This document shows, one piece after another, positions 6,385 through 26,154 of a DNA stretch of 28,284 nt. Position 1 is the stretch's first letter. Every line of letters begins with the position of its first letter. This DNA is from a candidate division WOR-3 bacterium (GTDB taxonomy: Bacteria; Hydrothermota; Tepidihabitantia; SM23-42; JAOAFX01). The position numbers and the translations under genes are program-made. Below the pieces are notes generated by a model. The model was not told where the DNA came from and did not search any database. It saw only the letters and a program-made list of their open reading frames with translations. The stretch is from NCBI GenBank assembly GCA_039802265.1, contig JBDRWI010000028.1:1-28284 (forward strand), given 5' to 3'.

Positions 6385-7872
6385 ATGACACAATACGAAC
6401 CCGAGGGAATTGAAGACATAAAAAGATTGAATGTCTGGCGACGCTACCAGAGTACCCTCTCATTTATCCTCTATGTAGCGGTAAAAAAATTGTTCCCCCA
6501 ATCAAGGCTGCGCATTGAGCATTCTATAAGTCAGGGTTTCTACTGCTTTTTGGAGCACCGACTTGCAGAAAGAGAACTAAGAGCGCTTGAGAATGTGATG
6601 AGGGGAATTATAAAGCAGGCAAATCCCATAGAGAGATTGGTGGTTTCAAAAGACGAGGCGCTAAAACTCTTTCACCGGGAGGGCTTAAGGGACAAGATAA
6701 CCCTTTTAAGAAATATTGAAGCTAAGAAGATAATCGTCTACCGGCTCCTTGGTCATTACAATACATTTCTTGTTCCACCATTTGATTCCACCGTTAAAGC
6801 ACCGCTTTTCTCCCTAAGGGATTTTCCACCCGGATTTGTTATTTTATTTCCCCACTGGAACAACCTTAAGAAATTACCTGAATTTGTACTCCAGTCGCGT
6901 CTGGCAAGGATATTTTATGAATACTTAGAATGGGTAAAGGTATTGGGAATAACAGATGTTGGGGAGTTGAACAATGCAATAAAAAAGGGGCGTGGCTCCG
7001 AAATTATTCAGGTCTCCGAGGCACTCCACGAGAAGAAGATTGTCTATATCGCTGATAGAATTACCAATGAAAAGAGAAAGATCATCTTGATTGCCGGTCC
7101 AAGCAGTGCGGGCAAGACGACCTTTACCAAGAGACTTGCAGTGCAACTTCTGGTAAATGGTCTGCGCCCCCTCATCATTTCGGCGGATGACTATTTCTTC
7201 TCCCACAATCAAACACCAAGGGACGCCCGGGGCCGGCTCGATTTTGAGTCAATCAAGGCCGTAGATATTGAAAAACTCAATAGTGATATGCTTGCTATAA
7301 CTGAAGGTAAACGGGTCATTCTGCCGAAGTTCAATTTCAAAACCGGTACCCGGGAAAAAGGTCCGGTCGTCCGCCTACCACCGCACGGTGTAGTGCTTAT
7401 TGAAGGTATCCACTGCCTGAATGATGAATTGACCTACAAAATACCCATATTCATAAAATTCAAAATTTACATCAGTGCCCTTACCCAGCTGAATATTGAT
7501 GACCACAATCGCATCTCCACGACCGACACCCGGATGCTGAGGAGGATTGTGCGCGATACCCACTATCGGGGTTATGATGTCGGAGGTGTCTTATGCCGGT
7601 GGGGAAGTGTCCGGAGTGGTGAAGAACGGAATATCTATCCCTTTCAGGAACAGGCTGATGAGATGTTCAATTCGGCGTTACTTTATGAACTGGCGGTCCT
7701 GAAAAGATATTGTGTGCCGATTTTGAAGAGAATAAAGAAGGGCGAACCTTTATATGAAGAAGCAGAAAGGCTATTAGACCTTTTAAGCCTCTTTAAAGAG
7801 ATGAACGACCGCGATGTTCCCTCAAACTCTATTCTTAGAGAATTTATTGGTGGTAGTTCATTCGTTTATTGA
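6385..7872 (+). CDS. Uridine kinase/phosphoribulokinase-family protein with an N-terminal threonyl-tRNA-synthetase-like domain
   Basis: P-loop AGPSSAGKTT, DDYF, EGIH, RRIVRD and terminal LREFIGGS. The ATG at 6385 follows AAGGAG. Confidence 0.85.
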   Translation: MTQYEPEGIEDIKRLNVWRRYQSTLSFILYVAVKKLFPQSRLRIEHSISQGFYCFLEHRLAERELRALENVMRGIIKQANPIERLVVSKDEALKLFHREGLRDKITLLRNIEAKKIIVYRLLGHYNTFLVPPFDSTVKAPLFSLRDFPPGFVILFPHWNNLKKLPEFVLQSRLARIFYEYLEWVKVLGITDVGELNNAIKKGRGSEIIQVSEALHEKKIVYIADRITNEKRKIILIAGPSSAGKTTFTKRLAVQLLVNGLRPLIISADDYFFSHNQTPRDARGRLDFESIKAVDIEKLNSDMLAITEGKRVILPKFNFKTGTREKGPVVRLPPHGVVLIEGIHCLNDELTYKIPIFIKFKIYISALTQLNIDDHNRISTTDTRMLRRIVRDTHYRGYDVGGVLCRWGSVRSGEERNIYPFQEQADEMFNSALLYELAVLKRYCVPILKRIKKGEPLYEEAERLLDLLSLFKEMNDRDVPSNSILREFIGGSSFVY

Positions 7873-8007: not shown

Positions 8008-9303
8008 ATGGGCAAAACTTTGGCCGAAAAGATATTATCTGAAAAGAGTGGGCAGGATGCCTATGCGGGTGATATTGTAATTGCAAAGGTGGATGTTGCT
8101 GCCTTTCAGGATGGCACCGGACCTTTAGGCATCCGTCAACTCCAAAAGATGAAGTTAGAAAGGGTAAAGGCACCGAAGTCTATCTGTTTTATTGACCACG
8201 CCGCACCATCGCCCAGAAAAGAACTTTCCAACGACCACATTCTGATTCGGGAATTCTGTGCAAAATCCGGGGCAATCCTCTCTGATGTCGGAGATGGTGT
8301 TATCCATCAACGGCTCGTGGAGTCTTTTGTCAAACCGGGGGATGTGGTAATCGGCGCTGACTCCCATTCCTGTACATCCGGTGCCCTTTGTGCATTTGCT
8401 ACCGGAATGGGTTCAACCGATGTGGCGATTGGTATGGCACTGGGGAGGACCTGGTTTAAGGTCCCTGAGACCTACCGAATAGAAGTAAAGGGTAGATTTT
8501 TACCCGGGGTCTATTCTAAGGACCTGATTCTCTATTTAATTGGAATGATCGGTGCAGATGGTGCTACATACAAATCATTGGAATTTGGTGGTGAGGCTAT
8601 AGAGAATATGTCTATGGAATCAAGGTTCGTCCTTTCCAACATGGCGGTTGAGGCCGGGGCAAAGACCGGTCTTATTGCATCGGACCGAATAACCAGGGAA
8701 TATCTGAAAAAACGCGGAAGGGTTAAGGACTTCAGACCAATTGCACCGGATAAGGATGCAAGATATGAGAAGGTAATTGAAATTGATGCAGAAAAACTGG
8801 AGCCCCAGGTTTCCTGTCCCCATACGGTTGATAATACAAAACCAGCAAAGGAACTAAAGGCGATAAAAGTAAATCAGGTTTTTATCGGTACCTGCACAAA
8901 TGGAAGGATTGAAGATTTGAAGATTGCCGCCCAGATTCTTAAAAACAGGAAGGTTGCACCGGGTGTGAGGCTTATTGTTGTCCCTGCCTCACGGGATATA
9001 TTCCTTGAGGCTTCAAAACTTGGACTTCTGGATATCTTTGTTCAATCCGGCGGAATAATCCTTGGACCCGGTTGTGGCCCCTGTGTCGGAGTGCATGAAG
9101 GGATACTCGGCGATGGCGAGGTCTGCCTTTCAACGGCAAACCGCAATTTTAAAGGAAGGATGGGAAATCCCGAGGGGCTGATCTATCTTGCCTCACCAGC
9201 CACTGCCGCCTACTCGGCATTGAGGGGAATAATAAGCGACCCCAGGGAATTTTTTGAGGCAAAAAAGTCCAAGGCAAAAAGAATAAAATCAAAAAGGAGA
9301 TAA
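8008..9303 (+). CDS. LeuC/HacA-family [4Fe-4S] dehydratase, large subunit (probable aconitase role)
   Basis: DH, GVIHQ, GADSH, GTCTNG, GCGPC, NRNFKGRMG and YLASP motifs. Confidence 0.9.
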   Translation: MGKTLAEKILSEKSGQDAYAGDIVIAKVDVAAFQDGTGPLGIRQLQKMKLERVKAPKSICFIDHAAPSPRKELSNDHILIREFCAKSGAILSDVGDGVIHQRLVESFVKPGDVVIGADSHSCTSGALCAFATGMGSTDVAIGMALGRTWFKVPETYRIEVKGRFLPGVYSKDLILYLIGMIGADGATYKSLEFGGEAIENMSMESRFVLSNMAVEAGAKTGLIASDRITREYLKKRGRVKDFRPIAPDKDARYEKVIEIDAEKLEPQVSCPHTVDNTKPAKELKAIKVNQVFIGTCTNGRIEDLKIAAQILKNRKVAPGVRLIVVPASRDIFLEASKLGLLDIFVQSGGIILGPGCGPCVGVHEGILGDGEVCLSTANRNFKGRMGNPEGLIYLASPATAAYSALRGIISDPREFFEAKKSKAKRIKSKRR

Positions 9304-9304
9304 G

Positions 9305-10585
9305 ATGGCAAACCCAATAAAGATGAAATTGATGAACAAAATCCCATTATGGCGTGAGGAGATAAAAAATCTGGTAAAAAATTATGGTGATAAGGTGATT
9401 TCTGAGGTGACTGTTGCCCAAGTCTATGGAGGAATGCGCGGTGTAAAGGCACTGGTATGTGATACATCGGAGGTTCCACCCGATAAGGGTCTTTTAATCC
9501 GCAACATTCCGATTGCCCAGTTAAAGAATAAACTTCCGGAAGAGATTCTCTTCTTACTCATTACCGGTGAACTGCCCACCAAGGATGAACTGGAAGGCGT
9601 AAAAAGTAACCTTAAGAGCCGGGGCGATGTTCCGGAATATGTCTGGAATACATTAAGGGCACTACCCGGAGATTCACATCCAATGGTAATGCTGAGTGTA
9701 GCAATACTGGCAATGGAAAAAGAGTCTCTATTTAGAAAAAAATATACCGAAGGTTTGAAAAAAGAAGAATACTGGGAATGGACACTTGAAGATTCCCTGA
9801 ATCTCCTTGCGAAACTACCTGCAATTGCCGCCGGTATATACCGGATGCGCTTCAATAAAGGTCCTTTAATCAATTCCGACCCGAACCTTGACTGGGCCGG
9901 CGATTATGCCCACATGCTCGGAATCCCCGACCCAAAAGGAGAATTCAAGAACCTTATGCGCCTATATATGGTCTTACATTCAGACCATGAGGGAGGAAAT
10001 GTGAGTGCCCATACCTGCCACTGTGTTGGGTCAGCACTCTCAGATCCTTACTATGCGGTCTCAGCAGGTTTGAATGGCCTTGCCGGTCCACTTCACGGAC
10101 TTGCCAATCAGGAATGCCTGGACTGGCTAATTAAGGTTCGGGAAAAATTTAAGGGTGTGCCCAGTGATGAGAATCTGAGACAATTTGCCTGGGATACATT
10201 AAATTCTGGAAAGGTAATACCTGGTTATGGTCATGCGGTCTTGAGAATCACCGACCCGAGGTTCGATGCCTTCTATGAATTTGGTGCGCGGGTATGTCCT
10301 GATGACGAAATCTATCAGATTATGGCAAAGGTATTCAAGATTGTCCCTGATGTCTTAAAGGAGCAGGGTAAGGCAAAGGACCCCTGGCCCAATGTTGATG
10401 CCGCAAGTGGTACATTACTATACCACTTTGGACTGACTGAATTTGAATACTACACAGTCTTATTTGGTGTTTCAAGGGCAATGGGGATGTGTGCCCAGCT
10501 CATTGTCAGCCGTGCCTTAGGCGAGGCGATTGAAAGGCCAAAGTCGGTTACCACGGAGTGGATAAAGACGACGGTGGCGAAATAA
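9305..10585 (+). CDS. gltA: Citrate (Si)-synthase, eukaryote/Geobacter-like type
   Basis: YGGMRG, HSDHEGGNVSAH, GLAGPLHGLANQE, GYGHAVLR, PWPNVDA and IERPKS motifs. Confidence 0.93.
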   Translation: MANPIKMKLMNKIPLWREEIKNLVKNYGDKVISEVTVAQVYGGMRGVKALVCDTSEVPPDKGLLIRNIPIAQLKNKLPEEILFLLITGELPTKDELEGVKSNLKSRGDVPEYVWNTLRALPGDSHPMVMLSVAILAMEKESLFRKKYTEGLKKEEYWEWTLEDSLNLLAKLPAIAAGIYRMRFNKGPLINSDPNLDWAGDYAHMLGIPDPKGEFKNLMRLYMVLHSDHEGGNVSAHTCHCVGSALSDPYYAVSAGLNGLAGPLHGLANQECLDWLIKVREKFKGVPSDENLRQFAWDTLNSGKVIPGYGHAVLRITDPRFDAFYEFGARVCPDDEIYQIMAKVFKIVPDVLKEQGKAKDPWPNVDAASGTLLYHFGLTEFEYYTVLFGVSRAMGMCAQLIVSRALGEAIERPKSVTTEWIKTTVAK

Positions 10586-10718
10586 AAGACATATGGTAAC
10601 GCAAAAAAGGAATAAAAATGTTGATTAGAAAAAGGGCTATAAGATTGATTGGTGATTCAAAAAATGCAGATGCACCATTTATGGTGCTTAAAATCTTATT
10701 AAATTTTGTAAGGTTTAT

Positions 10719-10815
10719 CCTCCCCCTTGATGGGAGTTTTAATTCCCCCGGATAAAGGTGGGGGTGAAAGATAAAATACCCCTCACCCTTGTCCTCTCCT
10801 AACAGGGGGAGAGGG
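10719..10815. repeat. Inverted pair of GC-rich REP-like palindromic units
   Basis: CCCCTCACCCTTGTCCTCTCC..GGGGGAGAGGG at 10779-10815 and an interrupted opposite-strand relative at 10719-10766. Confidence 0.5.
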
Positions 10816-10839
10816 ATTTGAGATATCCGAGGAGGTCTT

Positions 10840-11340
10840 ATGCTCCTAACCGGAAAGGCATGGAAGTTTGGCGATGACATCTCTACAGATTTGATCTGCC
10901 CGGGAAGATATTTCCATCTCCGTTCAAATCTTGAAGAACTTGCCAAACATGTCCTTGAAGATGCGGACCCGGAATTTGCCAAAAAACTCACAAAGGGTGA
11001 TTTTGTCGTTGCCGGGAATAACTTCGGTTTGGGCAGTTCGCGGGAACATGCCCCCACGATCATCAAACTTGCCGGGGTCTCCGCGGTCCTTGCCAAATCA
11101 TTTGCCAGGATTTTCTATCGCAATGCGATAAATATCGGCTTACCCCTCATTGAGTGCGATACCGATAAGATTGAGCAAGGGGATGATCTTGAAATTGACC
11201 TCGGCTCGGGCGTAATAAAAAATAAGACAAAGAATATTGAAATCAGGGCTCATCCGCTACCCAAGGCGATGTTAAATATCCTCAATGATGGAGGGCTCCT
11301 GGCACACATTGAAAAACATGGTGATTTTAAGTTAGACTAA
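10840..11340 (+). CDS. LeuD/HacB-family dehydratase, small subunit
   Basis: GDDISTD, NFGLGSSREHA and SFARIFYRNAINIG motifs. Confidence 0.92.
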   Translation: MLLTGKAWKFGDDISTDLICPGRYFHLRSNLEELAKHVLEDADPEFAKKLTKGDFVVAGNNFGLGSSREHAPTIIKLAGVSAVLAKSFARIFYRNAINIGLPLIECDTDKIEQGDDLEIDLGSGVIKNKTKNIEIRAHPLPKAMLNILNDGGLLAHIEKHGDFKLD

Positions 11341-11369
11341 ATCAAATTAATGTGAAAAAGGAGTAGAAT

Positions 11370-12671
11370 ATGAAGAAGGTAAAAAAGACCAAAATGGTCA
11401 AAAAGGCCAAAAAAGCCAAAACCGTTAAAAAGGCAAAGGTTATTAAGGCAAAACCAGTCAGTGAAAAGCCAAAGTTTCCCGAGCCCATTGTAAAGGCAAT
11501 GGAGCATTTCGGAGGTATCCTTGAAAAACAATTAAAAAGGGTAGAGGCAATTAAAAAGGCTGAAGACTGGATTGATTATCAAAAATTGAAACCCATTATC
11601 ATCGGTGTAATCGGTGGTGATGGGATTGGCCCATATATTACCGGTGAAGCCCAGCGGGTATTGGAGCATCTGTTGAAAGATGAGGTGGCGAAAGGCAAGG
11701 TTGAATTTCGTACAATTGAAGGTTGCACGATTGAACGGCGGGCAGAGGTAATGAAGCCAATCCCGGATGATGTCCTGGAAGAGATTAAAAAATGTCATGT
11801 ATTATTAAAAGGTCCAACCACAACCCCAAAGAAGGGAGACCCCTGGCCCAATATTGAGAGTGCCAATGTGGCAATAAGAAAGGAACTTGATCTGTTTGCC
11901 AATGTCCGGCCGGTGCGCGTTCCCTCCCAGGGCATTGACTGGATATTCTTCCGTGAAAATACGGAGGATGTCTATGCGCTTGGTCCTTTCGGCATTGAGG
12001 TCACCCCGGAACTGGCAATAGACTTCAAGATGATCACCAGACCTGGAAGTGAACGAATTATCAGACTGGCATTTGAGCATGCCAAAAGAAACAACAAAAC
12101 AAGGGTTACCGCGGTCACCAAGGCAAATGTGGTAAAGACAACCGATGGATTGTTTCTTAAGACATTCTATGAAATTGCCAAGGAATATCCAGGAATAAAT
12201 GCCGATGACTGGTTCATTGATATTATGACCGCAAAATTGGTTGATACAAAGCGCCGCACTGAATTTCAGGTCCTTGTCCTGCCCAATCTCTATGGCGATA
12301 TACTTACCGACGAGGCTGCGGAATTCCAGGGTGGTGTAGGAACGGCCGGCAGCGCCAATATTGGTAAGCGTTATGCGATGTTTGAGGCAATTCACGGCTC
12401 CGCCCCAAGAATGGTTCAGGAAGGAAGAACCCAGTATGCCGACCCCTCCAGCGTGATTCGTGCTGGCGCGATGCTTTTGAATCATATTGGCTATGTGGAA
12501 TTGGGCAAAAAACTTGAGATGGCACTGGATATCTGTGGCCAATATGAGAGGAAACTTGTAATGACCGGAAGGGCAACCGGTGCCACCGGCCGTGATTTCT
12601 GCAATTATATCCTTGAAACGATGGAAGACCCGAACCTGGAAAACCGCTGGAACGAATACCAGAAGAGATAG
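11370..12671 (+). CDS. icd: Isocitrate dehydrogenase (IDH/IPMDH family) with a Lys-rich N-terminal extension
   Basis: GDGIG, KGPTTTP..SANVAIR, RENTE, KANV, NLYGDI and FEAIHGSAP motifs, plus operon context. Confidence 0.8.
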   Translation: MKKVKKTKMVKKAKKAKTVKKAKVIKAKPVSEKPKFPEPIVKAMEHFGGILEKQLKRVEAIKKAEDWIDYQKLKPIIIGVIGGDGIGPYITGEAQRVLEHLLKDEVAKGKVEFRTIEGCTIERRAEVMKPIPDDVLEEIKKCHVLLKGPTTTPKKGDPWPNIESANVAIRKELDLFANVRPVRVPSQGIDWIFFRENTEDVYALGPFGIEVTPELAIDFKMITRPGSERIIRLAFEHAKRNNKTRVTAVTKANVVKTTDGLFLKTFYEIAKEYPGINADDWFIDIMTAKLVDTKRRTEFQVLVLPNLYGDILTDEAAEFQGGVGTAGSANIGKRYAMFEAIHGSAPRMVQEGRTQYADPSSVIRAGAMLLNHIGYVELGKKLEMALDICGQYERKLVMTGRATGATGRDFCNYILETMEDPNLENRWNEYQKR

Positions 12672-12968: not shown

Positions 12969-14996
12969 TTATTCCTCTTTTGGGGCGTAGTGTGAGAACT
13001 GCATTGTATAAATTCCTTTACCCTGAGTGATTGACCGTAGATCGGTTGCATAACCAAAGGACTTGGAGAGGGGAAAATTTGCCTTCACAATCTTTTCTTT
13101 ACGATTTGTTTCAATATTCAAGATTTTGCCTTTTCGGGCATTGAGGTCATTTAAGACATCGCCAAGATAGGTATCAGGCACAACGATCTCCAGTTCCATT
13201 ATTGGCTCCAGGAGGATTGGATTTCCTTTCATAAATGCCTCTCTCAGCGCAATCTGGGTAGCAATCTTGAATGCTAAGTCCGAGGAATCCACTGGATGGT
13301 AGGCACCATCAATTATGGCCACCTCAATATTCACGATCGGATAACCCATAAAAATCCCGGTGTCACATTGTTCTTTTATCCCGGATTCAATTGCTGGAAT
13401 AAACTCCTTTGGTATGGTACCTTCCTTGATTCTATTTTTAATCAGAACCTCAGGTTTATCATGGGGTTTAACCATTAATTTTACAACCCCATACTGCCCC
13501 CTGCCTCCAGTCTGTTTTATAAACCTGCCCTCAGCCACAGCCTCATTCCGAATTGTCTCGCGGTAAGAGACCTGCGGTTTACTCACATTACTCTCTATTC
13601 CAAATTCCCTTTTCAGGCGGTCAACAATAATTTCCAGGTGGAGTTCACCCATACCGGAGATAATTCTCTGGGCAGTTTCTTCATCGGTCTTTACCTTGAA
13701 GGTTGGGTCTTCGGTCTGGAGATATCTGAGTGCCTCTTCCAGTCTCTCGTCATCCATCTTTGTCTTGGGCTCAAGCGAAACAAAGACCACTGGCTCCGGA
13801 AATCGCATCGGTTCATAAGATATTGGATGCTTCACACTACAAAGTGAATAACCGGTTTTGCACTCACGCAGCCCGGTTACAACTCCAATCTCTCCAACCC
13901 CCAGACTTTCTGTCTCCTCTTTTTTATTGGCATGCATAAGGAAGAGTCGGCCTACACGGTCAACACGGTCAGGTGGGAGGACCCTTACCTTATCACCATT
14001 TTTGATTGAACCAGAATAGACCCGGATATAATAAATCAATCCTAAATGGGGGTCGGTCTGGGCCTTGAATAAAAGTGCCGAGAATGGTTCATCAAAGGAT
14101 GGCATCCTTGTTTCTTTCTTTTCTGTTTCTGGGTTTATCCCCTCGGCTGGAGGGATATCAATCGGGGCTGGTAGGTAATCAAGGACTCCATCAATGAGTG
14201 GTTGTATCCCCCTGTTTTTCAGAGCACTTCCGCAGAAGACCGGAACAAAATGGAAGTTGAGAGTTCCGCGCCGAATCGCCGATTTTATCATTTCCACTGA
14301 TAATGGAACATCCGAGAAGTAACTTTCGAATAAATCCTCATCGTATTCCGCAATCGTCTCTAAAAGTTCAATTCGGAATTTCTCGGCATCAGTTTTATAT
14401 TCTCGGGGAATCTCTGTAGTATAATAATCCATTCCCAGTTTGTCTTTCCAGAACATTGCCCTTTCTTCAACAAGGTCAATTACTCCCTCAAATTTATCTT
14501 CTGAACCAATCGGCAATTGTAAGATTAATGGCTTGAGGGAGAGTTTATCTTTCATCTGCTTTATTACCCGAAAGAAGTCGGCACCAAGACGGTCCATTTT
14601 ATTGACAAAGGCGATTCTCGGCACCCGATACCTATCAGCCTGACGCCAGACGGTCTCACTCTGGGGTTGTACCCCACCCACGGCACAGAAGATAACAATT
14701 AAACCATCTAAGACCTTCATTGAGCGTTCTACTTCTATTGTGAAATCTACATGTCCGGGTGTATCAATAATGTTTATTCTATGCTCTTTCCAGTATACAG
14801 TCGTGGCGGCCGCAGTTATGGTTATTCCCCTTTCCCTTTCCTGGGGCATCCAATCCATTGTTGCCGAGCCCTCATCTACCTCGCCGATTTTTCTTATTTT
14901 ACCGGTATAAAACAAAATCCTTTCTGTAGTTGTTGTCTTTCCGGCATCAATATGGGCGGCAAGTCCAATGTTTCTTATCCGATTGAGTTCAATCAT
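12969..14996 (-). CDS. fusA: Elongation factor G (675 aa)
   Basis: [35 protein letters not shown] and GMGELHL motifs. The ATG at 14996 is preferred over the TTG at 15014. Confidence 0.95.
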
Positions 14997-15003
14997 GACC
15001 AAA

Positions 15004-15031
15004 ATTATACTCAAACGAATTTTAATTTCAA
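15004..15031 (-). promoter_or_regulatory. Promoter of fusA (leaderless arrangement)
   Basis: TTGAAA-N16-TATAAT-N7-ATG with no SD. Confidence 0.7.
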
Positions 15032-15119: not shown

Positions 15120-15338
15120 TCAGGAATATTTGACGATTTCCCGTAAGAGTCGTTCCGTTTCTTTTGCCTCTTTTGCATCCACCGGATTGATAGCAAAACC
15201 GGCATGGATCATTACATAATCGCCGATTTTTACCTCGGGTGTTAGAATAATAGAAATCTCTTTCCTTACACCCATAATCTCGGCGATTGCCATATCGCCA
15301 TTTATCTCTTCTATTTTACCAACGACTGCCAGGCACAT
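15120..15338 (-). CDS. hypC: Hydrogenase maturation chaperone HypC/HupF (72 aa)
   Basis: MCLAVVGKI start and GDYVMIHAGFAI motif. Confidence 0.93.
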   Translation of the reverse strand: MCLAVVGKIEEINGDMAIAEIMGVRKEISIILTPEVKIGDYVMIHAGFAINPVDAKEAKETERLLREIVKYS

Positions 15339-15352
15339 ATTTGGATAGTATA

Positions 15353-15380
15353 ATTTTACACGATTCTTCGGTAAAGTCAA
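15353..15380 (-). promoter_or_regulatory. Promoter of hypC
   Basis: TTGACT-N16-TAAAAT, 14 nt before the ATG. Confidence 0.65.
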
Positions 15381-15426: not shown

Positions 15427-15454
15427 TTGACATCATAAATAATTCAGATATAAT
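15427..15454 (+). promoter_or_regulatory. Promoter of the candidate selenoprotein operon
   Basis: Consensus TTGACA-N16-TATAAT. Confidence 0.8.
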
Positions 15455-15476
15455 ATTATGATTAGAAAGGGGACAT

Positions 15477-16502
15477 ATGGAAAGGATAAAAAAGTTTATT
15501 TGCACGGTTCTCTTGGTTTTTATCCCCGGTGTTCTGTTTTCCGCAGAGCGGGTTGTCGTTGCGGAGATGATAACCGACGAAGGCTGAGCCGACTGCGGCG
15601 CTGCCAGTGGGACACTGGCACAGATTGTAATAAATCATCCCGGAAGGGTTGCCGCAGTTGATGTCCATTATCCTCCAGGTGACTCATTCTTCTTACAAGA
15701 AGGGTATGACCGAATCCACTACTACCCACCTCCATTTTATGGAATATATCTTACACCCTGGCTCTGGTTTGATGGCAATCAACATGGGGGAATGGGGTAT
15801 TTCCAATGGGAATCAATGATTGTAAATCGGATGAATCAACCTGCGCCGGTAATGATAAATCTTGATGGAGAGTATTCGCCTAACAGTAATACTGGAACAA
15901 TCTATGCTACATTCCGAAATGACTCCAGTGCAACGATTACGGGTAGGGTAATTTTTGTAATCACCGAAGACAGTCTGTTTTATCCTGCACCCAATGGTGT
16001 AATCTGGCATTGTAATGTCCCAAGGGATTATATTCCTGATGATAGCGGAGTAGTAGTCACCATTAATCCCGGTGATTCAGTCACTGTAACTATGCCTTTT
16101 ATCACCCATCCTACTTGGAATAAGACACACTGTAAGATTAAAACTTGGATTCAGAATGACCAGATGCAGCCTGATACAACCAAAGAAATCTGGCAAGGTG
16201 CCATGGTAAATCTGCTGGAACTCGGCATAGAAGATAATTTTTCTCCGACCCATAAAGAGGTTCTAAAGGTTTCACCCAATCCCTGTCTGCGCAATGGCAC
16301 TGTCCAATTCAACCTTCCCTATGCTGCATTCTACGAAATTTCAATCTATGATTGTTCAGGGAAAAGAGTCAAGAAGATTATAAATAATGCAAAACATGCA
16401 ATCTGGAATTTAAATGAGGGTTATGGCGTCAATCCTGGTGTCTATTTTTACCGCGTTGTGTCAAAGAAATTCGTAAAGACTGGAAAAATAGTAATTGAAT
16501 AA
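15477..16502 (+). CDS. Putative selenoprotein: Omp28/thioredoxin-like UxxC protein with signal peptide and T9SS-type C-terminal domain (341 aa, Sec37)
   Basis: ATG 15477 follows AAAGGGG. Reads MERIKKFICTVLLVFIPGVLFSAERVVVAEMITDEG-TGA(15585-15587)-ADCGAA and stays open into the 15792 ORF. Has TPWLWFDG, VITED, HCNVPR and a C-terminal SPNP..IYDCSGKRVK..GVYF..KIVIE. Confidence 0.88.
15602..15620 (+). promoter_or_regulatory. Bacterial SECIS-like hairpin
   Basis: TGCCAGTG-GGA-CACTGGCA, a perfect 8-bp stem with a G-first loop, separated from the UGA by 14 nt. Confidence 0.8.
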
Positions 16503-16568
16503 CAAAGAGGTGAACGATAAGTGATAATATATCCATCAACAAAGTCCGTAAATGATAAAGGAGGAATT

Positions 16569-18509
16569 ATGAAGGTCTTTTTGACAACCATCATAATGCT
16601 GGGAGTGGCAAGCGCGGGAAACTGGTTAATGAATGGTGATTTTGAGGAGGAGTTAACTACGGGCTGGACAGTAACCCAGTCGGGGTCATCAATTTATGTT
16701 GACCGCGCGACCGGTTATGAGCCAGACCCTGATTATGAGGCGCGCGTGGAAAAAGGTTCAGGAAATGGTTTTGTCCAGGTGGCACAGACCATTGATATTA
16801 CTACACCGAGCGAGTTTACCTTTTCAGCCAGGGCAAAGCTATACGCATACGACAATAATGCGGATACACTTACCTATGCTGCTGCCGCATTAAGGATAAT
16901 TTATCTTAATGCATCCGGCACGTTCCTTGGCGAAACAAGAATCTGTCAATTCACTGCACCCTGCCCCTGGCAGAATACCGCAACCTGTCATTTAATCATT
17001 GCCAGCGATTCATTTTGGCATAACTATTCTTTTAATCTTCAGACCGAACTTGGGAATCTGCCGGGTGTTAATCCTACAGCGGTCAAAAAGGTTGAAGTTG
17101 CCTTCTATGATACAACTGCCCACACTTGTTGAGGGGCAGCGCAACTGGCGAAGGTCTTCGCCGACGATGTAAAATTAGACTATATCGGAACAGGACTTTA
17201 TTTAAACTTCATCAAATCAAAGGTCTATGACGGAGGCGGCAATAATAATGGCCGACTGGACCCCGGTGAAACCGTAAACATTACCGCATTCCTGAAGAAT
17301 ATCGGTGGTGCCAATTTTACAAATCTAAATTCAACACTCTCAACGACAAGTCCTTATATCACGATCAACGACAACGCTGGTTATTTCGGGACAATTCTGA
17401 TTGATAGCACAAAGGAGAATATTGCTGACCCTTATGTTGTTTCGGTAAGTTCCTCAGCTCCACAGGGACATACTGCACAATTCCGTCTGATTGCAACCCA
17501 GGGTACCTTTGCTGATACGTTCTTCTTTAATCTTGTGGTTGGTTCCTATCATTATTTGGTCTGGAATCCTGACCCCACTCCATCTTCGGGACAAACAATG
17601 CATAATATACTGACATCCCTGGGATATGGCGGATTGTATTCAACTACCCTTCCGACAACCGACCTTGATGTTTATCGGGCAATCCTTGTCTGTGTTGGTA
17701 TATTCCCAAATAATTATGTCATTGGTGCAGGAAGTCCGGAGGCCACGGCACTTGTTAATTATGTAAATAACGGTGGCCGACTCTATCTTGAAGGTGGCGA
17801 TGTCTGGTGTTATGACCCATTATGGGGTGGATACGATTTCTGTCCTTTGTTTGGAATTAATCCTGATAATGATGGTGGTCCAGACTTAGGACCAATCCAG
17901 GGACAGTCTGGCACATTCACGAACCAGATGTATTTCAACTATGCGGGTGAGAATAATTATATGGACCACATAAGTCCGAGCGGGGGTGGTGCATTTCTTA
18001 TCTTCGTAGATGTTGATAATGCCTATAACTGTGCTGTCGCTCGTGACGCTGGAACATATCGCACAGTCGGGACTTCGTTTGAACTTGGTGCACTTGTTGA
18101 TGGTTCAGGTGTATCAACCCGTGCTGCACTTTTAGATTCAATTCTTCATTTCTTCGGGATATTTCAGACGCCAGTTTTTGAAGGAAATGTTCAAAAAGAC
18201 ATACAAGAGACACCAATACAGGTTAAACCAAATCCATTCCGGAATCATCTTGTGATTCAGTACCCACAAAGTACCATGAATTATGCACTAAAAGGCGATG
18301 AAGGAAACGGCTTTAGCCTTGCGCTCTATGATGCAACAGGCCAGAGGGTTAAAGATTTAACTCAATTACTTGGTCCTCGGTTATCCAATAACCAGATAAC
18401 CTGGGATGGAACAGATGATTTGGGTCGTCGCTTACCGGGAGGTATCTATTTTATCCATCTGAGGATAGGCAATCAGCAATATATTCAGAAGGTAGTAAAG
18501 ATTAAATAG
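16569..18509 (+). CDS. Putative selenoprotein: exported multidomain protein with a Cys-Sec pair and T9SS-type C-terminal domain (646 aa, Sec188)
   Basis: SD AAAGGAGG and a signal peptide. ORFs 16521-17132 and 17535-18509 share a frame, and the 402 nt between them are open after TGT-TGA (17127-17132): HTCUGAAQLAKVFADDVKL...DGGGNNNGRLDPGETVNI. C-terminus KPNPF..WDGTD..GIYF..QKVVKIK. Confidence 0.85.
17146..17163 (+). promoter_or_regulatory. Bacterial SECIS-like hairpin
   Basis: (T)GGCGAA-GGTC-TTCGCC(G) with a G-first loop. The Watson-Crick stem is separated from the UGA by 14 nt. Confidence 0.75.
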
Positions 18510-18524
18510 GGTATAACTCTATAA

Positions 18525-18554
18525 CTCCCCGTCCGCCATATGGCGGACGGGGAG
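18525..18554. repeat. Perfect 30-bp GC-rich palindrome (REP-like or 3' stabilising hairpin)
   Basis: CTCCCCGTCCGCCAT|ATGGCGGACGGGGAG, with no U-tract on the + strand. Confidence 0.7.
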
Positions 18555-18897: not shown

Positions 18898-18925
18898 TTG
18901 ACATTTATTAAAATATTTATATAAT
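18898..18925 (+). promoter_or_regulatory. Sigma70-like promoter
   Basis: TTGACA-N16-TATAAT. Confidence 0.8.
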
Positions 18926-18952: not shown

Positions 18953-21505
18953 ATGGTCAGCAAAAAAAAGGTGAACAAGAAGTTCAGTATTTACATCTTT
19001 TTATTAATAATTATTTTATCATCGGGGCATGCTGGCTGGAGAATACTGCCAAGTGGTGTAGACATCTTTTTAAGAGACATATCATTTGCTGACTCCCTTA
19101 GAGGTTGGATTGCTGGAGATTATGACTTCTTTAATTTTGATAGCAGCATCCTCCACACTACAAATGGAAGGGACTGGATTGAATTGTGGAGTCCAATAAA
19201 TTCCAATTTAAACAGTATTTGCTTTATTGATTCCCTGAACGGCTGGGTTGTATCAGATATTCCGTTTGCAGAGATAACCGATAGTATAATTGCCCATACA
19301 ACCGACGGCGGTATGTCCTGGAGTAAGCAGCGAAGTCCTGAATTGGTGCACTTAAATAGTGTGCATTTTGTAAATCAAACCCGTGGCTGGGCCGTTGGCA
19401 ATCTGGGCAAGATAATTGCTACAGTAAACGGCGGTGATTTATGGGTAAGCCAGAATAGTGGAACCGCTGTAAAATTGAATGATATCTATTTTGTTGACCA
19501 GTTGAATGGCTGGACAGTTGGTGATTCAGGTAAAATTATTCATACTACAAATGGTGGTATTTCTTGGTCCATTCAAACGAGTGGAATTCAGCAAGAGTTA
19601 AGGGCGGTATATTTTTATAATCTAAATATAGGATGGGTTGTTGGCAATTCAGGTACTGTGTTAACCACAACGAACGGTGGAAATGAATGGGTTTTGCAGA
19701 ATAGCGGCGTAAATAGCCAGCTTAACGATGTCTTCTTTACTGATATAGCACATGGCTGGGCAGTTGGTGACTCAGGCAGAATTATCTACACAATCGACGG
19801 CGGGAATAATTGGGCAGTCCAATCAAGCGGAGTTAGTAGTGCACTATTTGGCCTTTTCTTTATAAACCAGCATAAGGGTTGGGCAGCTGGTGGGGCAGGC
19901 ACCATTCTATTTTATGAAGATATTCCTCCTTCTACACCAGTCTTGATCGCACCTCCGGAATCGTCCAGAATAAATGATTTAACTTTAGCTTTTCTCTGGC
20001 ATAGAGCTCAGGATTATTCGGGCATAAAGAGATACTATCTCCAAATTGATACCACTGATAATTTCGTTGCACCCATTATAAGTGATTCCACCGTTGATAC
20101 AGTTTATCTATTGACTAATAATTTAGCAAACCGTCAATACTGGTGGCGGGTATGTGCTATGGACAGTGCTAACAACATTGGAAGTTGGTCTTTAATCTGG
20201 ACATTCTTTGTGGATACTGTTCGTCCTTATGTTGTTGGGACGGTGCCGGCTTTGGGTGATACTGGGGTATTGCCTGATGTTAGTATTTATGCGACTTTTT
20301 CGGAGTTGATGGATTCGGTGACGATGGTTCCTGGTAATTTTTCTGTGGTTGGTTCGGTGAGTGGTGTTCATGTGTTTGGTGTGAGTTATAGTAATTTAGA
20401 TTCGACGGTTTGTCTTGATCCGGTTGATAGTTTTTATTATGCGGAGACGGTGGTGGTTACGATAAGGAAGGAGGTTTGTGATTTAGCGGGTAATATGATG
20501 GTGGCGGATAAGGTTTGGGAGTTTTATATGCACACACCTTCACTGGATAACATCGGTCCAGTTACATCGCAACTTTTAGTTACACCCAATCCTACACAGG
20601 GTGCCCAAAGGATTGTTATTAAAGGAACTGTCTCCGATTCAACCTTTGGCAATTCAATAATTGAATCGGCTGAAATTTTTGTAGACTCAATAGGACCCGA
20701 TAGTACTGGGATAGCCCTCGCTCCGCTTGATGGAGTCTTTGACGAAATTACCGAGGAGGTTATTGATACTATGGATATCGCTAACTGGCAGTTTGGCACA
20801 TCCCGATGGTTATTTGTCCACGGTCTTGATGCCTCAGGCAATTGGGGGAACTTTGATTCAATCTGCGTAATTGTGACGCCGCCCCCGCCTGATACTACTC
20901 CTCCCACATTTGATATTACCATTATCCCCCAGGAGCCATATATTGGCGATACCATCACCATAAGGACAATCCCCAGCGAACCGCTCTGCTTTGATTCGGC
21001 GGTTATCTGCTCCATCACCACCCAAGATAGTACAATACACACTCTAACGCTTGCCATAGATACTTCGGGATATTATGGCAAAATGTGCACGGCGGGTTTT
21101 ACATCAGGAGTATGTGTGGTGAGGGTCTCAGGTTATGACCTTGCTGGAAATAAAGGCTCGTCTTCTACAAAATTCAATATTACCGCAAAACCCGGAGAAT
21201 TTATGCCTGAAGATATGGTATACGCCTGGCCCAATCCTGCCCGGGGAAATGAGGTAAATTTCCATTTCTATGTAACTACCAACGCGGATGTGACCGTTGA
21301 AGTATTCAATTTAAGGGGAAAATTGGTGACTAGGCTCAATGGGTATGGGGAAGGCGGTAGACCACCCCATCAACTAAACTCAAATGTAATCAAATGGGAT
21401 ATTACAAAAATTGCCAGTGATATTTATATCTTCAAGTTGTTAGCAAAAAGTCGTGAAACAGGTGAGACCAAGACGGTCGTTAAGAAATTTGCGATTGTAA
21501 AATAG
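18953..21505 (+). CDS. Exported YCF48/BNR-repeat beta-propeller protein with FN3/Ig-like domains and a C-terminal sorting-like domain
   Basis: About 7 repeats of L..v.F.d...GW.VG..G.I..T.nGG..W, a DLAGN Ig-like module, and a C-terminal WPNP..VFNLRGKLV..IYIF..KKFAIVK. Confidence 0.85.
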   Translation: MVSKKKVNKKFSIYIFLLIIILSSGHAGWRILPSGVDIFLRDISFADSLRGWIAGDYDFFNFDSSILHTTNGRDWIELWSPINSNLNSICFIDSLNGWVVSDIPFAEITDSIIAHTTDGGMSWSKQRSPELVHLNSVHFVNQTRGWAVGNLGKIIATVNGGDLWVSQNSGTAVKLNDIYFVDQLNGWTVGDSGKIIHTTNGGISWSIQTSGIQQELRAVYFYNLNIGWVVGNSGTVLTTTNGGNEWVLQNSGVNSQLNDVFFTDIAHGWAVGDSGRIIYTIDGGNNWAVQSSGVSSALFGLFFINQHKGWAAGGAGTILFYEDIPPSTPVLIAPPESSRINDLTLAFLWHRAQDYSGIKRYYLQIDTTDNFVAPIISDSTVDTVYLLTNNLANRQYWWRVCAMDSANNIGSWSLIWTFFVDTVRPYVVGTVPALGDTGVLPDVSIYATFSELMDSVTMVPGNFSVVGSVSGVHVFGVSYSNLDSTVCLDPVDSFYYAETVVVTIRKEVCDLAGNMMVADKVWEFYMHTPSLDNIGPVTSQLLVTPNPTQGAQRIVIKGTVSDSTFGNSIIESAEIFVDSIGPDSTGIALAPLDGVFDEITEEVIDTMDIANWQFGTSRWLFVHGLDASGNWGNFDSICVIVTPPPPDTTPPTFDITIIPQEPYIGDTITIRTIPSEPLCFDSAVICSITTQDSTIHTLTLAIDTSGYYGKMCTAGFTSGVCVVRVSGYDLAGNKGSSSTKFNITAKPGEFMPEDMVYAWPNPARGNEVNFHFYVTTNADVTVEVFNLRGKLVTRLNGYGEGGRPPHQLNSNVIKWDITKIASDIYIFKLLAKSRETGETKTVVKKFAIVK

Positions 21506-21513
21506 GAGGAGCA

Positions 21514-23421
21514 ATGTCCAAAAAATCTGTGCTTGCAATAGTTTTTTATCTTGCCTTAGTTTTTGCCGATACTGGTGGCAGTGGTGCGACATTTCTTACC
21601 CTTGATACCGGTGCCCGAAACTTAGGAATGGCTGGCTCAGGTAGTGCCTTTGCAAACGGAGTTCAATCTTTATGTTGGAATCCTGCTGTGCTCGGCTGGT
21701 TAAACGGAAAAGAGATTATCTGTTCCCACTCAGAGCATTTCCAGTCAATCAGGTATGAGAATATAGGATTCGCCTACGGCAGAAATAATACTGGTCTTGG
21801 TTTTTCTTTGAAAGGACTCTATCTTGGTGGTATTGAAGAGCGGACCGAGCCATCGCCTGAACCTATTTCCATGATGAATGCCTATTTCCTCGCCCCTACT
21901 CTATCACTGGGCAGGGTTGTTAGTAGATATTTTACCCTTGGTATGAATATAAAGTCAGTATATCAACAGATTGGCGATGACAACTCATTCTCTTTTGCTA
22001 CAGATATGGGAGTGGATACAAAGACACCTGTAAAAGGTATGAAAACCGGTCTATCAATCATTGACCTCGGGACCGGGGTTAAGTTTACAAGGTTTTCTTA
22101 TTCGCTACCCACCCGATTACGCCTCGGGCTGGGATATTCCCTGGCAGATGGAAATGTAAATCTTGCCCTTGACCTAATCAAGTTCCTTAAAGAAGACCTC
22201 GAATATGCCATGGGAATAGAAGGAAGAATGATTGAAAGGCTCTCTCTGAGATTAGGCTATCGCGGAACTTTCAACGGAGAAGATAATTATGGTGGACTCG
22301 CCTGTGGTTTTGGTGTTCAAGTTCAGAATTTTGATGTTGACTACGCCTTCACCACAAATGGTTCCTTAGGTGGAACACACACCTTTTCAATATCCTATTT
22401 CTGGGGGCGCAGTGAAAGAGTGAAGGCTGAAAGAGGATTGCTCATCGCTGAAGAATTTATGAAAAGGATTAAATATCAGGCACAGGAGTTTTACAACCAA
22501 GGATTAGCCGCAAAAAACAATGGTATGGACGAAGAGGCGATTAAGAATTTTGAAACGAGCCTTATTTGGAATTCCGATTTTCGTGAACCGGTTCCCTATA
22601 TTGAGGCCTTAAAGAAGAATAAATTTAATAGATGCCTCCAGGCCGGCTACAATGCATATAAGGGGAATGACTACATTGAAGCTATTTACCAATTTTCCTG
22701 TGCGGCAAGGATTGATTCTACGGATAAAAATGCCCAGGGTTGGCTCAAGGCAAGTCTGGCTGCACTTGTTAAGGCAACCAGTGAAAAGATTTCGGAAAAA
22801 ACTAAAAGAGAAAGGATATCATACTACATACAATCAGGTGGAGAATGTTTTTCAAAAAAAGATTATAAAGAGGCAATCAGGCAGTGGTATAATGCCCTTG
22901 CCATTGATTCCACGCAAATTTCAGTTCGGAGATTTATTGAAGCGGCTAAAATAAAAATCAGAGATTATATTCAGGTCCTGATAGAACAAAAAAGGCTATT
23001 CAAGGCATTAGGCAGGGTTAAAGAATATCTTTCTTTGGAACCCGAAAATCAGGAGTTTCTGGATAAAAAGGCGTATCTTGAGAAAGAGCTCAATAACTTG
23101 ACACTGGCTCATATTGATAATGGTATCAGATTCTTCAATCGAGGAAGTTATCTAAGTTCAAAGGTTGAATTCCGGATTGTCCACCTGCTGGAGCCACAGA
23201 ATTTTACTGCCAAACATTATTTAGCCAAGATAAATTCATTGAGGATAGAACCAAACACGATTGAATTGAATAATCTCTATGAAAAAGGTGCTCAATTTTA
23301 TGCCCAGGGTAATTACGAATTTGCACTTGAGTGCTATGAGGGTATTAAAGAGTTTAAACCGGACTTTTTCGGTGTCCAAAAGAATATTGAGCTTATAAGA
23401 AAGAAGATAGCAGAAAATTAA
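21514..23421 (+). CDS. PorV/PorQ (UPF0164/FadL-like) beta-barrel fused to TPR repeats
   Basis: FL.L..GAR..GMAG, WNPA, LP..LRLG, LRLGY, VDYAF and LG.TH..S motifs, followed by helical TPR-like repeats. Confidence 0.8.
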   Translation: MSKKSVLAIVFYLALVFADTGGSGATFLTLDTGARNLGMAGSGSAFANGVQSLCWNPAVLGWLNGKEIICSHSEHFQSIRYENIGFAYGRNNTGLGFSLKGLYLGGIEERTEPSPEPISMMNAYFLAPTLSLGRVVSRYFTLGMNIKSVYQQIGDDNSFSFATDMGVDTKTPVKGMKTGLSIIDLGTGVKFTRFSYSLPTRLRLGLGYSLADGNVNLALDLIKFLKEDLEYAMGIEGRMIERLSLRLGYRGTFNGEDNYGGLACGFGVQVQNFDVDYAFTTNGSLGGTHTFSISYFWGRSERVKAERGLLIAEEFMKRIKYQAQEFYNQGLAAKNNGMDEEAIKNFETSLIWNSDFREPVPYIEALKKNKFNRCLQAGYNAYKGNDYIEAIYQFSCAARIDSTDKNAQGWLKASLAALVKATSEKISEKTKRERISYYIQSGGECFSKKDYKEAIRQWYNALAIDSTQISVRRFIEAAKIKIRDYIQVLIEQKRLFKALGRVKEYLSLEPENQEFLDKKAYLEKELNNLTLAHIDNGIRFFNRGSYLSSKVEFRIVHLLEPQNFTAKHYLAKINSLRIEPNTIELNNLYEKGAQFYAQGNYEFALECYEGIKEFKPDFFGVQKNIELIRKKIAEN

Positions 23422-25110: not shown

Positions 25111-26154
25111 ATGAAGTGTGTGATGTGTCAGAAAGAAACCATTCTTGCCCGAATTCTTCCTTATTGTTCGGAATGCATCCGTCAACAATTTGATAAAATC
25201 TATCCGGAAATTTTAAAAATTCATCAGCAGACAAGGAGTGCTTACCTTCTGCCCGGAGAAGTTCCTCAGGATAAGGATGGCATACCCTGCGGATTATGTG
25301 TTAACAATTGCCGCATTGGAATTGGTCAATCAGGTTATTGTGGTGTGAGAAAAAATATTGCAAAAAAGATTATCGGCCCTGATGAAAATTGGGTTTATGT
25401 AGATTGGTATCACGACCCGCTGCCTACAAATTGTGTTGCCGACTGGGTTTGTGCGGGTAGCAAAGACTATGGCTATAAAAACTTAGCAGTCTTCTATGAG
25501 GCATGCAGTTTTAATTGTCTATTCTGTCAAAACTGGCAGTATCGGGAAAGAAAGAATCGGGCAACGGTTGAGGAACTGGTGCGTGCCGCAGACCCACTTA
25601 CCTCCTGTATCTGTTATTTCGGTGGCGACCCCACACCGTTTGCCCTACATTCCATCGTCGCGGCAAATGAGATTTTAGCACGAAAAAAACACAAAAAATT
25701 TAGAATCTGCTGGGAGACCAATGGTTCGGTTTCGCCAAAGATAATGATAGAATGGGTTGCCCTGGCATTGGAAACAGACGGTTGTATAAAGATTGATTTC
25801 AAGGCATTTTCTGATAGTTTAAATATTGCATTATGCGGCTCATCAAATAGCAATACAAAAGAAAATATCAAAATTGTAGCAAAATATATTCCCCAGCGAG
25901 AAAAACCACCAATTTTGATTGTTAGTACCCTGTTAATCCCTGGCTACATTGATGAGTATGAGATAACCGAAATGGCGAAGTTCTTGAGTTCAATAAATAA
26001 AGATATACCCTGGTCATTTTTGGGTTTTTATCCACATTTCTATTTTAGTGATTTACCCAGGACTTCAAGGAGGCAGGCAGAACAGGCATTGGAAATTGCC
26101 AGAGATTATGGAATAAAAAATACCCATATCGGCAATGTTCATCTTTTGGTTTGA
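25111..26154 (+). CDS. Radical SAM protein, PFL-activase-like/AmmeMemoRadiSam-like
   Basis: CSFNCLFCQN, FGGDP, ETNG, IDFKAF, STLLIPG and HIGN motifs, with extra N-terminal Cys clusters. Confidence 0.88.
   Translation: MKCVMCQKETILARILPYCSECIRQQFDKIYPEILKIHQQTRSAYLLPGEVPQDKDGIPCGLCVNNCRIGIGQSGYCGVRKNIAKKIIGPDENWVYVDWYHDPLPTNCVADWVCAGSKDYGYKNLAVFYEACSFNCLFCQNWQYRERKNRATVEELVRAADPLTSCICYFGGDPTPFALHSIVAANEILARKKHKKFRICWETNGSVSPKIMIEWVALALETDGCIKIDFKAFSDSLNIALCGSSNSNTKENIKIVAKYIPQREKPPILIVSTLLIPGYIDEYEITEMAKFLSSINKDIPWSFLGFYPHFYFSDLPRTSRRQAEQALEIARDYGIKNTHIGNVHLLV

Follow-up and report, generated by a model that had tools for sequence, protein, structure and literature searches.

Two adjacent genes for predicted selenoproteins with type IX-like sorting domains in a hot-spring bacterium of candidate division WOR-3

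We analyzed a 28,284-nt stretch of DNA (the window; contig JBDRWI010000028.1, assembly GCA_039802265.1) from a candidate division WOR-3 bacterium whose genome, at 2.3 Mb, is 89% complete. The sequencing runs that contained the locus were hot-spring metagenomes from two studies; no RNA data set was listed among them, which bears on expression in neither direction. Two adjacent genes, here called gene 1 and gene 2, each carry a single in-frame TGA codon. When this codon was translated as selenocysteine (Sec, U), each frame ran on to a C-terminal sorting domain resembling those of type IX secretion systems (T9SS), with the motifs U37-A-D-C40 in gene 1 and C187-U188 in gene 2. Both genes are split under translation table 11. 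The features are collected in Table 1, in which the length of gene 2 is counted from the ATG that carries a ribosome site and the signal peptides of both genes were assigned by eye from the translations. The promoter upstream of gene 1 is a perfect match to the TTGACA/TATAAT consensus, and such perfect promoters are common in this genome (n = 202). A preliminary description of the window had reported this promoter, as well as one in-frame TGA beside a Cys in each gene with the frame open beyond it, and both observations were confirmed. With moderate confidence, we regard genes 1 and 2 as a two-gene operon for secreted selenoproteins. The hairpin 3′ of gene 2 (−30.8 kcal/mol) is likely a terminator or a stabilizer of the mRNA end; a repeat element was considered at this position and dropped, as only eight loose matches were found genome-wide.

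Table 1. Features of the two-gene locus (positions in the window)
Feature	Position	Strand	Remarks
Putative sigma-70-type promoter, TTGACA-16-TATAAT	15427..15454	+	12/12 consensus match
Gene 1: signal peptide, thioredoxin-fold domain with UxxC, immunoglobulin (Ig)-like domain, T9SS type A sorting domain	15477..16502	+	341 aa; HBP35/Omp28-like
Gene 1 predicted Sec codon (U37)	15585..15587	+	Cys40 at 15594-15596
Gene 1 predicted Sec insertion sequence (SECIS)	15602..15620	+	8-bp stem, GGA loop
Gene 1 sorting domain	16269..16499	+	
Gene 2: signal peptide, carbohydrate-binding module (CBM)-like Sec domain, variable middle domains, sorting domain	16569..18509	+	646 aa
Gene 2 jelly-roll beta-sandwich domain	16617..17189	+	C187-U188 in loop before last strand; also C126, C132
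Gene 2 predicted Sec codon (U188)	17130..17132	+	
Gene 2 predicted SECIS	17147..17162	+	6-bp core stem, GGUC loop
Gene 2 sorting domain	18228..18500	+	
G+C-rich hairpin after gene 2	18525..18554	+	13 bp, no U tract

The genes for Sec decoding were present in the host genome. Each of selA, selB, selD and tRNA-Sec (selC) was found over its cut-off; selA, selB and tRNA-Sec are clustered on contig C13, and selD, which carries an in-frame TGA of its own, lies on contig C5. A hairpin stem begins 15 nt past the TGA (a 14-nt gap) in both gene 1 and gene 2, with the loops 22 and 20 nt from the TGA and folding energies of −11.4 and −8.2 kcal/mol, respectively. The model for bacterial SECIS elements specifies a loop of 3–9 nt, a stem of 4–16 bp, a G in the first two loop positions, a spacing of 16–37 nt and an energy of −7.5 kcal/mol or lower (PMC13188914), and both hairpins agree with it on every point. 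As a measure of chance, the same hairpin test was run over long frames. It was passed by 62 of 13,655 Cys or Trp codons and by 4 of the 473 TGA codons that end such frames; gene 2 itself is one of the four. The folding-energy z score was −2.08 for gene 1 and −0.16 for gene 2. Because the gene 2 hairpin is unremarkable on energy alone, the case for it rests on conservation and covariation.

Sixty relatives were searched, and gene 1 was matched in 58 and the gene 2 domain in 45. The gene 2 site was TGA in 52 aligned homologs, with no other codon seen; this count derives from 53 TGA rows among 55 (two did not cover the site) after removal of one row with a misaligned earlier stop (L077). For gene 1, 45 of 55 covering rows had TGA and the remaining 10 had TGT or TGC (three further rows did not cover the site), so that Sec is paired with Cys at the same alignment column, the 10 Cys rows being distant loci selected for having no stop. 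No Cys codon was seen at the gene 2 Sec site among close homologs. In a scan of a species-level genome collection, which partly overlaps the genomes of the other counts, each of the 36 full gene 2 matches continued past a TGA at the site and had a hairpin there. Across the phylum, the gene 2 domain was present in 91 of 251 genomes, and 149 of the 150 matches listed held one TGA (71 more were unlisted, and the TGA position was not checked match by match). The domain occurred in 84 of 102 selA-positive genomes versus 7 of 149 selA-negative ones, kin not being independent; several of these seven genomes are incomplete. Homolog records were labeled Candidatus Stahlbacteria (a group within WOR-3), Cloacimonadota or Desulfuromonas-related.

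Pairing in the gene 2 hairpin was retained in 288 of 288 alignment cells with 16 two-sided changes, and in the gene 1 hairpin in 93% of cells with 18 two-sided changes. The covariation scores of both hairpins were reached neither by 500 shuffles nor by slid pairings, and the main covarying swaps fall on third codon positions. For the gene 2 domain, 150 database representatives were compared. Of these, 113 stop at the Sec position, one continues nearby and 18 are partial. In the other 18 no stop interrupts the site and a matching Cys is mostly lacking, so the fold can exist without Sec, a point against our preferred reading; these distant proteins have variable loops at the site, and a few have a Cys nearby. 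No full-length gene 2-domain protein was present among 422 candidates of 355–1131 aa, which is no evidence of absence, since a slower search found a few that were stop-free.

The TGA codons at 15585 and 17130 are, on sequence evidence, selenocysteine codons, and SelB would almost certainly read each in-frame UGA as Sec through the hairpin in the coding region. The competing possibility, that the genes are pseudogenes, contain sequencing errors or have TGA read as Trp, Gly or Cys, draws on two database fragments with W (P0128) and L (P0126) at the Sec site, both seen as protein and not as DNA. TGA terminates 473 long frames in the genome and is an ordinary stop at 7870, at 26152 and at the end of hypC, and the sole tRNA-Trp has the anticodon CCA. 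In contigs from other runs, spanning the two studies, the TGA at 15585 was unchanged in four of four runs and that at 17130 in all three that covered it. An alternative code or pseudogenes were rejected on the use of TGA as a stop and on codon conservation, and sequencing error was rejected on the lack of a variant at either TGA in the runs covering them. With the codon conserved and the hairpin covarying across families as well, this possibility is scarcely credible. The preliminary description had proposed Sec recoding from a G-first-loop hairpin 14 nt after each TGA and from TGA serving as a normal stop elsewhere, and had predicted that gene callers fragment such genes; all of this held. 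None of the three outcomes that it had named as refuting arose: the full set of Sec genes was found, the sites showed TGA, or Cys in some gene 1 homologs, with covarying hairpins rather than Trp or Arg without a hairpin, and the TGAs were unchanged in contigs of other runs.

The predicted structure of gene 1 (predicted local distance difference test score, pLDDT, 95.5) is a thioredoxin-plus-Ig fold bearing the UxxC motif. It resembled HBP35 (PG0616) of Porphyromonas gingivalis (PDB 5y1a; template-modeling score 0.80, E 2e-13, 17% identity), which shares the two-domain fold, the signal peptide and the C-terminal domain (CTD) and has a CxxC at the place of the gene 1 UxxC. HBP35 is a T9SS cargo of the cell surface in which the CxxC gives thioredoxin activity (PMC4674972, PMC2907840); it reduces insulin faster than Escherichia coli thioredoxin, is reported to help form disulfide bonds in a dsbA mutant of E. 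coli and binds hemin, for which the CxxC is not needed (PMC2907840). Gene 1 differs in having Sec for the first Cys and a host without a detectable Gld/Por motor. By analogy with HBP35, gene 1 probably encodes a thioredoxin-type disulfide oxidoreductase in which the selenolate would replace the attacking Cys.

Gene 1 is not new in kind, as UxxC selenoproteins related to Omp28 are already catalogued as NF045500, the GOS_C family of thioredoxin-fold selenoproteins known since 2008 (PMC13188914, PMC2398784). Against the NF045500 model, gene 1 scored 34 bits and a relative 41 bits, short of the cut-off of 200, and 43 of 44 gene 1 alignment rows matched it. By sequence comparison gene 1 is a distant relative of the Omp28/GOS_C selenoprotein rather than an NF045500 member by threshold. 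It shares with this family the thioredoxin-like fold, the UxxC motif and the Omp28-type domain; it differs in having a T9SS sorting domain, in occurring as several paralogs per genome and in sharing its operon with another selenoprotein. The description of GOS_C, in the part available, gave no export route or function (PMC2398784).

The N-terminal domain of gene 2 was modeled as a jelly-roll sandwich (pLDDT 94.9). Its fold resembles CBM4/16 modules and the sugar-binding domains of phage tailspikes (5w6h, 8xmz, 2zew; best Z 15.2, root-mean-square deviation 2.5, 145 residues), from which it differs in having at most 20% identity, no match of its profile to PDB sequences and an invariant Sec in a loop. 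The Pfam model CBM_4_9 matched only the N-terminal part at 22.8 bits, below the cut-off of 25.9; the likeness is one of fold and does not imply sugar binding. None of the curated NCBIfam selenoprotein hidden Markov models scored over its cut-off on 47 members of the domain, the matches being weak ones to NTTRR-F1 in eight members, far short of the threshold. The rest of gene 2 is variable, and some homologs join the Sec domain directly to the sorting domain (294–306 aa, L078). The Sec domain gives the impression of a portable head for redox chemistry set on a stalk. Pfam found nothing useful in the middle region; an atlas comparison of this region gave Bacteroidota clusters and DUF4960, as leads only.

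In the loop that leads into the last strand, the Sec never varies, and the preceding Cys is present in 40 of 47 rows. Where this Cys is missing, all seven rows carry one in another loop, at alignment column 113, versus 13 of the 40 rows that have it; among the representatives, a loop Cys was found in 13 of 32 that do not end in Cys and 1 of 72 that do. The Sec loop, the column-113 loop and the conserved C132-P-W134 loop would lie at one end of the modeled sandwich. We consider it fairly probable that, in gene 2, the Sec is displayed by a loop at the binding end of the CBM-like sandwich, where it would run a Se–S cycle with a neighboring Cys. Several points detract from this proposal: 19 of the 32 non-Cys-ending representatives have no loop Cys; the swap of Cys positions clusters on a quick, weak tree; and the closeness of the loops was read from strand order without model coordinates. 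The Fisher p of 3e-7 for the swap is overstated because the tree has only four changes and a single origin is possible.

Both sorting domains scored over the TIGR04183 cut-off of 23 bits (gene 1, 42.4; gene 2, 26.9), which bears out the sorting-like C-terminal domains of the preliminary description. SprA was over its cut-off in 30 of 30 genomes and is 1809 aa long in the host, where at least 150 sorting-domain matches, 10 PorV-family loci (one within the window at 21514) and C25 peptidases bearing such domains were also found. SprA, the PorV/PorQ family and type A sorting domains are shared with the T9SS of Bacteroidota, whereas other components of that system were not found, and these gaps speak against the route: GldM/PorM was found in 0 of 30 genomes, GldL, GldN and PorP were not found in the host (the control genomes were silent for all four families), and the best PorU match reached 73.5 bits against a cut-off of 420. 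By these profile searches the host has a reduced or divergent T9SS, not a complete Bacteroidota one. Two real selenoproteins could instead be kept in the periplasm, with FlgD-like Ig domains at their C-termini and a partial T9SS that does not carry them out. The failure to find motor and ring components would fit this, as would borderline Pfam scores, FlgD_ig slightly outscoring Por_Secre_tail on gene 2 and neither reaching its cut-off; the full-length SprA in all 30 genomes, the PorV-family loci and the TIGR04183 scores make it improbable. We judge from these sequence features that export through a T9SS-type translocon is likely; a signal peptide would take each protein to the periplasm, and the C-terminal domain would probably direct it through an SprA/PorV translocon to the surface or medium. 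The T9SS-type route of the preliminary description was upheld with respect to SprA and the PorV family and was left without the motor and ring genes, for which the controls were also silent.

The sorting domain lies 3′ of the UGA in both genes, and the preliminary description had concluded that export would be selenium-dependent. It was right in that a product truncated at the UGA loses everything downstream; no sign of a switch was found. Truncation leaves about 14 residues past the signal peptide in gene 1 and removes strand 176–189 of the model, the last strand of the domain, in gene 2. Because the truncated products would be a stub and an incomplete fold, selenium-dependent export is better described as a side effect of the UGA position. 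A deliberate selenium switch, with a stable and functional truncated form inside the cell and the full protein exported when selenium is available, would agree with the order of UGA and sorting domain; given the broken products and a Sec at a catalytic-type position with Cys counterparts, it is very improbable.

Gene 1 and gene 2 are adjacent in most close relatives. In a neighboring family they belong to a longer operon with one or two copies of gene 1, one or two copies of gene 2, an Omp28-like UxxC lipoprotein, a CxxC TlpA/ResA protein, a DUF6029 protein and a membrane 4Fe-4S protein. Among the matches listed, a gene 1 or gene 2 match with a TGA lay within 10 kb of DUF6029 in at least 21 of 55 DUF6029 genomes (19 of 28 in family f2, 1 of 14 in the host's own family and one in f7), these cases having been chosen by hand from the listed rows and then checked. 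The ferredoxin adjoins DUF6029 in 41 of the 52 genomes that have both. DUF6029 (L143:1091-2665 and orthologs) has a CxxxxC in each of 10 complete rows, the cysteines standing 22 and 17 residues from the C-terminus. Two genomes without selA or selB over threshold (G050 and G053) have an all-Cys cluster of Omp28-CTD proteins, TlpA, a lipoprotein and DUF6029, with no gene 2. The host itself encodes an Omp28-like lipoprotein with UxxC and SECIS on the minus strand of contig C18 (L128:99-818), whose orthologs precede TlpA and DUF6029 in relatives. As a separate observation, selB lies beside or near the gene 1/gene 2 clusters in several relatives (L083:5997-7919; G002 C48, G023 C233, G003 C28).

From gene order and motifs, the two proteins may have the task of reducing or reshuffling disulfides beyond the outer membrane, in a protein substrate or in their own large secretome, fed by the linked chain; we put this forward tentatively. 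The supply chain encoded beside the pair in relatives would consist of the membrane polyferredoxin, TlpA, the DUF6029 barrel with its CxxxxC and the Omp28 lipoprotein with its UxxC. A thiol/selenol wire spanning the entire envelope, in which the membrane polyferredoxin would reduce TlpA in the periplasm, the CxxxxC loop of the DUF6029 barrel would pass electrons across the outer membrane in the manner of DsbD and the Omp28 Sec lipoprotein would recharge several T9SS-displayed selenoenzyme families, is more speculative and rather doubtful. Three observations tell against such a relay: the single case of DUF6029 proximity in the host's own family; the failure to find DUF6029, a TlpA ortholog or the ferredoxin in the host genome, at its 89% completeness; and the published treatment of DUF6029 as a beta-barrel, perhaps a polysaccharide porin (PMC9603273). 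A gap past C18 would be a likely explanation for the three missing genes, the lipoprotein gene ending about 100 nt from the contig end. A DsbD membrane domain was not found in the host genome either. PG2174 of P. gingivalis is presumably a DUF6029 protein. In that organism PG2172–PG2175 (PorA, Omp28, PG2174 and a thioredoxin-domain protein) likewise place a CTD protein, Omp28 and a thioredoxin-domain protein at adjoining locus numbers, whereas selenium is absent there and the available text describes no relay function (PMC13744359).

Two other functions were weighed against disulfide reduction. The proteins could be folding catalysts of the secretome that, instead of acting on substrates outside, form or rearrange the disulfides of sorting-domain proteins while these are exported or afterwards, as the wealth of sorting-domain matches and the activity of HBP35 in the dsbA mutant would allow (PMC2907840). 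HBP35 nevertheless outpaces E. coli thioredoxin in reducing insulin (PMC2907840), TlpA and the ferredoxin, as linked genes, point to a supply of reductant and Sec-free relatives lack gene 2 altogether, so that we hold this to be unlikely. Alternatively, CU and UxxC could be soft-metal ligands that bind metals, metalloids or heme on a CBM-like scaffold and scavenge or detoxify them at the surface. CU motifs occur in SaoL, HgcA and MbdU, which are catalogued as organometallic or metal-binding proteins (PMC13188914), HBP35 binds hemin (PMC2907840) and the CBM-like fold is a binding fold; the Cys beside the Sec is replaceable, no metal-resistance or transport genes lie within the conserved cluster and hemin binding by HBP35 is independent of its CxxC (PMC2907840), and we consider this function more improbable still. 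Reduction or reshuffling of disulfides beyond the outer membrane is the reading that we tentatively prefer.

A genome-wide scan, which included the search for further sorting-domain genes with UGA and a hairpin suggested earlier, brought the Sec candidates to eight: selD, genes 1 and 2, paralogs on contigs C23, C87 and C2, the C18 lipoprotein and a family on C95. Seven of the eight detected genes encode envelope proteins; selD was missed by the hairpin filter, and other cytoplasmic selenoproteins may have been missed too. The C95 gene (L132:1229-2581; C95:5728 onward) represents a third sorting-domain family with an in-frame TGA, a DSCUS motif and its own conserved hairpin, and many relatives have several one-TGA copies of it. 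The paralogs, two of gene 1 and one of gene 2, have TGA and SECIS (C23:26526, C87:1922, C2:8131), and in relatives the C87 subfamily includes Sec forms as well as Cys forms. At C13:30463, another long sorting-domain gene contains an in-frame TGA without a SECIS-like hairpin, which is probably a nonsense change.

Around the locus, hypC (15120-15380), standing alone, and then an EF-G paralog (12969-15014) lie on the minus strand, divergent from the operon. A functional link to these genes was considered and dropped, as the upstream neighbors vary among relatives and are kept only within the genus. A second perfect promoter (18898-18925) stands ahead of 18953-23421, which encodes a sorting-domain protein with Ig domains and YCF48 repeats and, behind it, a PorV/PorQ-family barrel joined to tetratricopeptide repeats. 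Positions 8008-12671 hold, in one run, the aconitase large subunit, citrate synthase, the aconitase small subunit and an isocitrate/isopropylmalate dehydrogenase.

Most catalogued selenoproteins of bacteria are thioredoxin-like or metabolic oxidoreductases. A 2026 catalogue of 119 selenoprotein families lists GOS_C and some selenoproteins of the outer membrane, among them a TonB-dependent receptor and an MtrB/PioB barrel (PMC13188914). Its table has no CBM-fold family, and its text contains none of the terms T9SS, Omp28 and WOR-3. Omp28 and WOR-3 were also absent as terms from the main texts of BSepDB (PMC13326102, and one supplement), deep-Sep (PMC12013277), PMC9312934 and bioRxiv 2022.07.06.499078, as was T9SS from the two of these four in which it was sought; BSepDB was compared by text terms and not by sequence sets, so that members could sit there under other names. 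Multi-selenoprotein operons are known, such as SAO and Tso, which likewise have several Sec genes per operon, some with CU and some with signal peptides; they differ in belonging to other families, none described in the available text as T9SS cargo (PMC13188914, bioRxiv 2022.07.06.499078). In the portions searched, the catalogues did not mention T9SS cargo among selenoproteins. Literature searches, which covered few subscription papers, returned no paper on Omp28 selenoproteins, on selenoproteins and type IX secretion, on type IX secretion in WOR-3 or on T9SS and SprA in Zixibacteria, one unrelated listing for WOR-3 and selenocysteine, and one paper for DUF6029. Gene 2 apparently represents an undescribed selenoprotein family with a fold new among catalogued selenoproteins.

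Taken together, the pair suggests selenium-based redox chemistry outside the cell, as the preliminary description had proposed. A whole lineage keeps several families of predicted secreted Sec proteins whose genes are split by gene callers, which adds a new Sec scaffold, with a fold outside the 119-family list, and indicates the size that the overlooked selenoproteome can reach in uncultured phyla. The findings also support a T9SS-like export route without a recognizable Gld motor and give DUF6029 and Omp28 a testable function, open to study in cultured Bacteroidota with Cys versions. If the proposed wire is true, the selenoenzymes at its outer end would break extracellular disulfides or polysulfides, and the Sec trait in this lineage would be kept mainly for surface chemistry.

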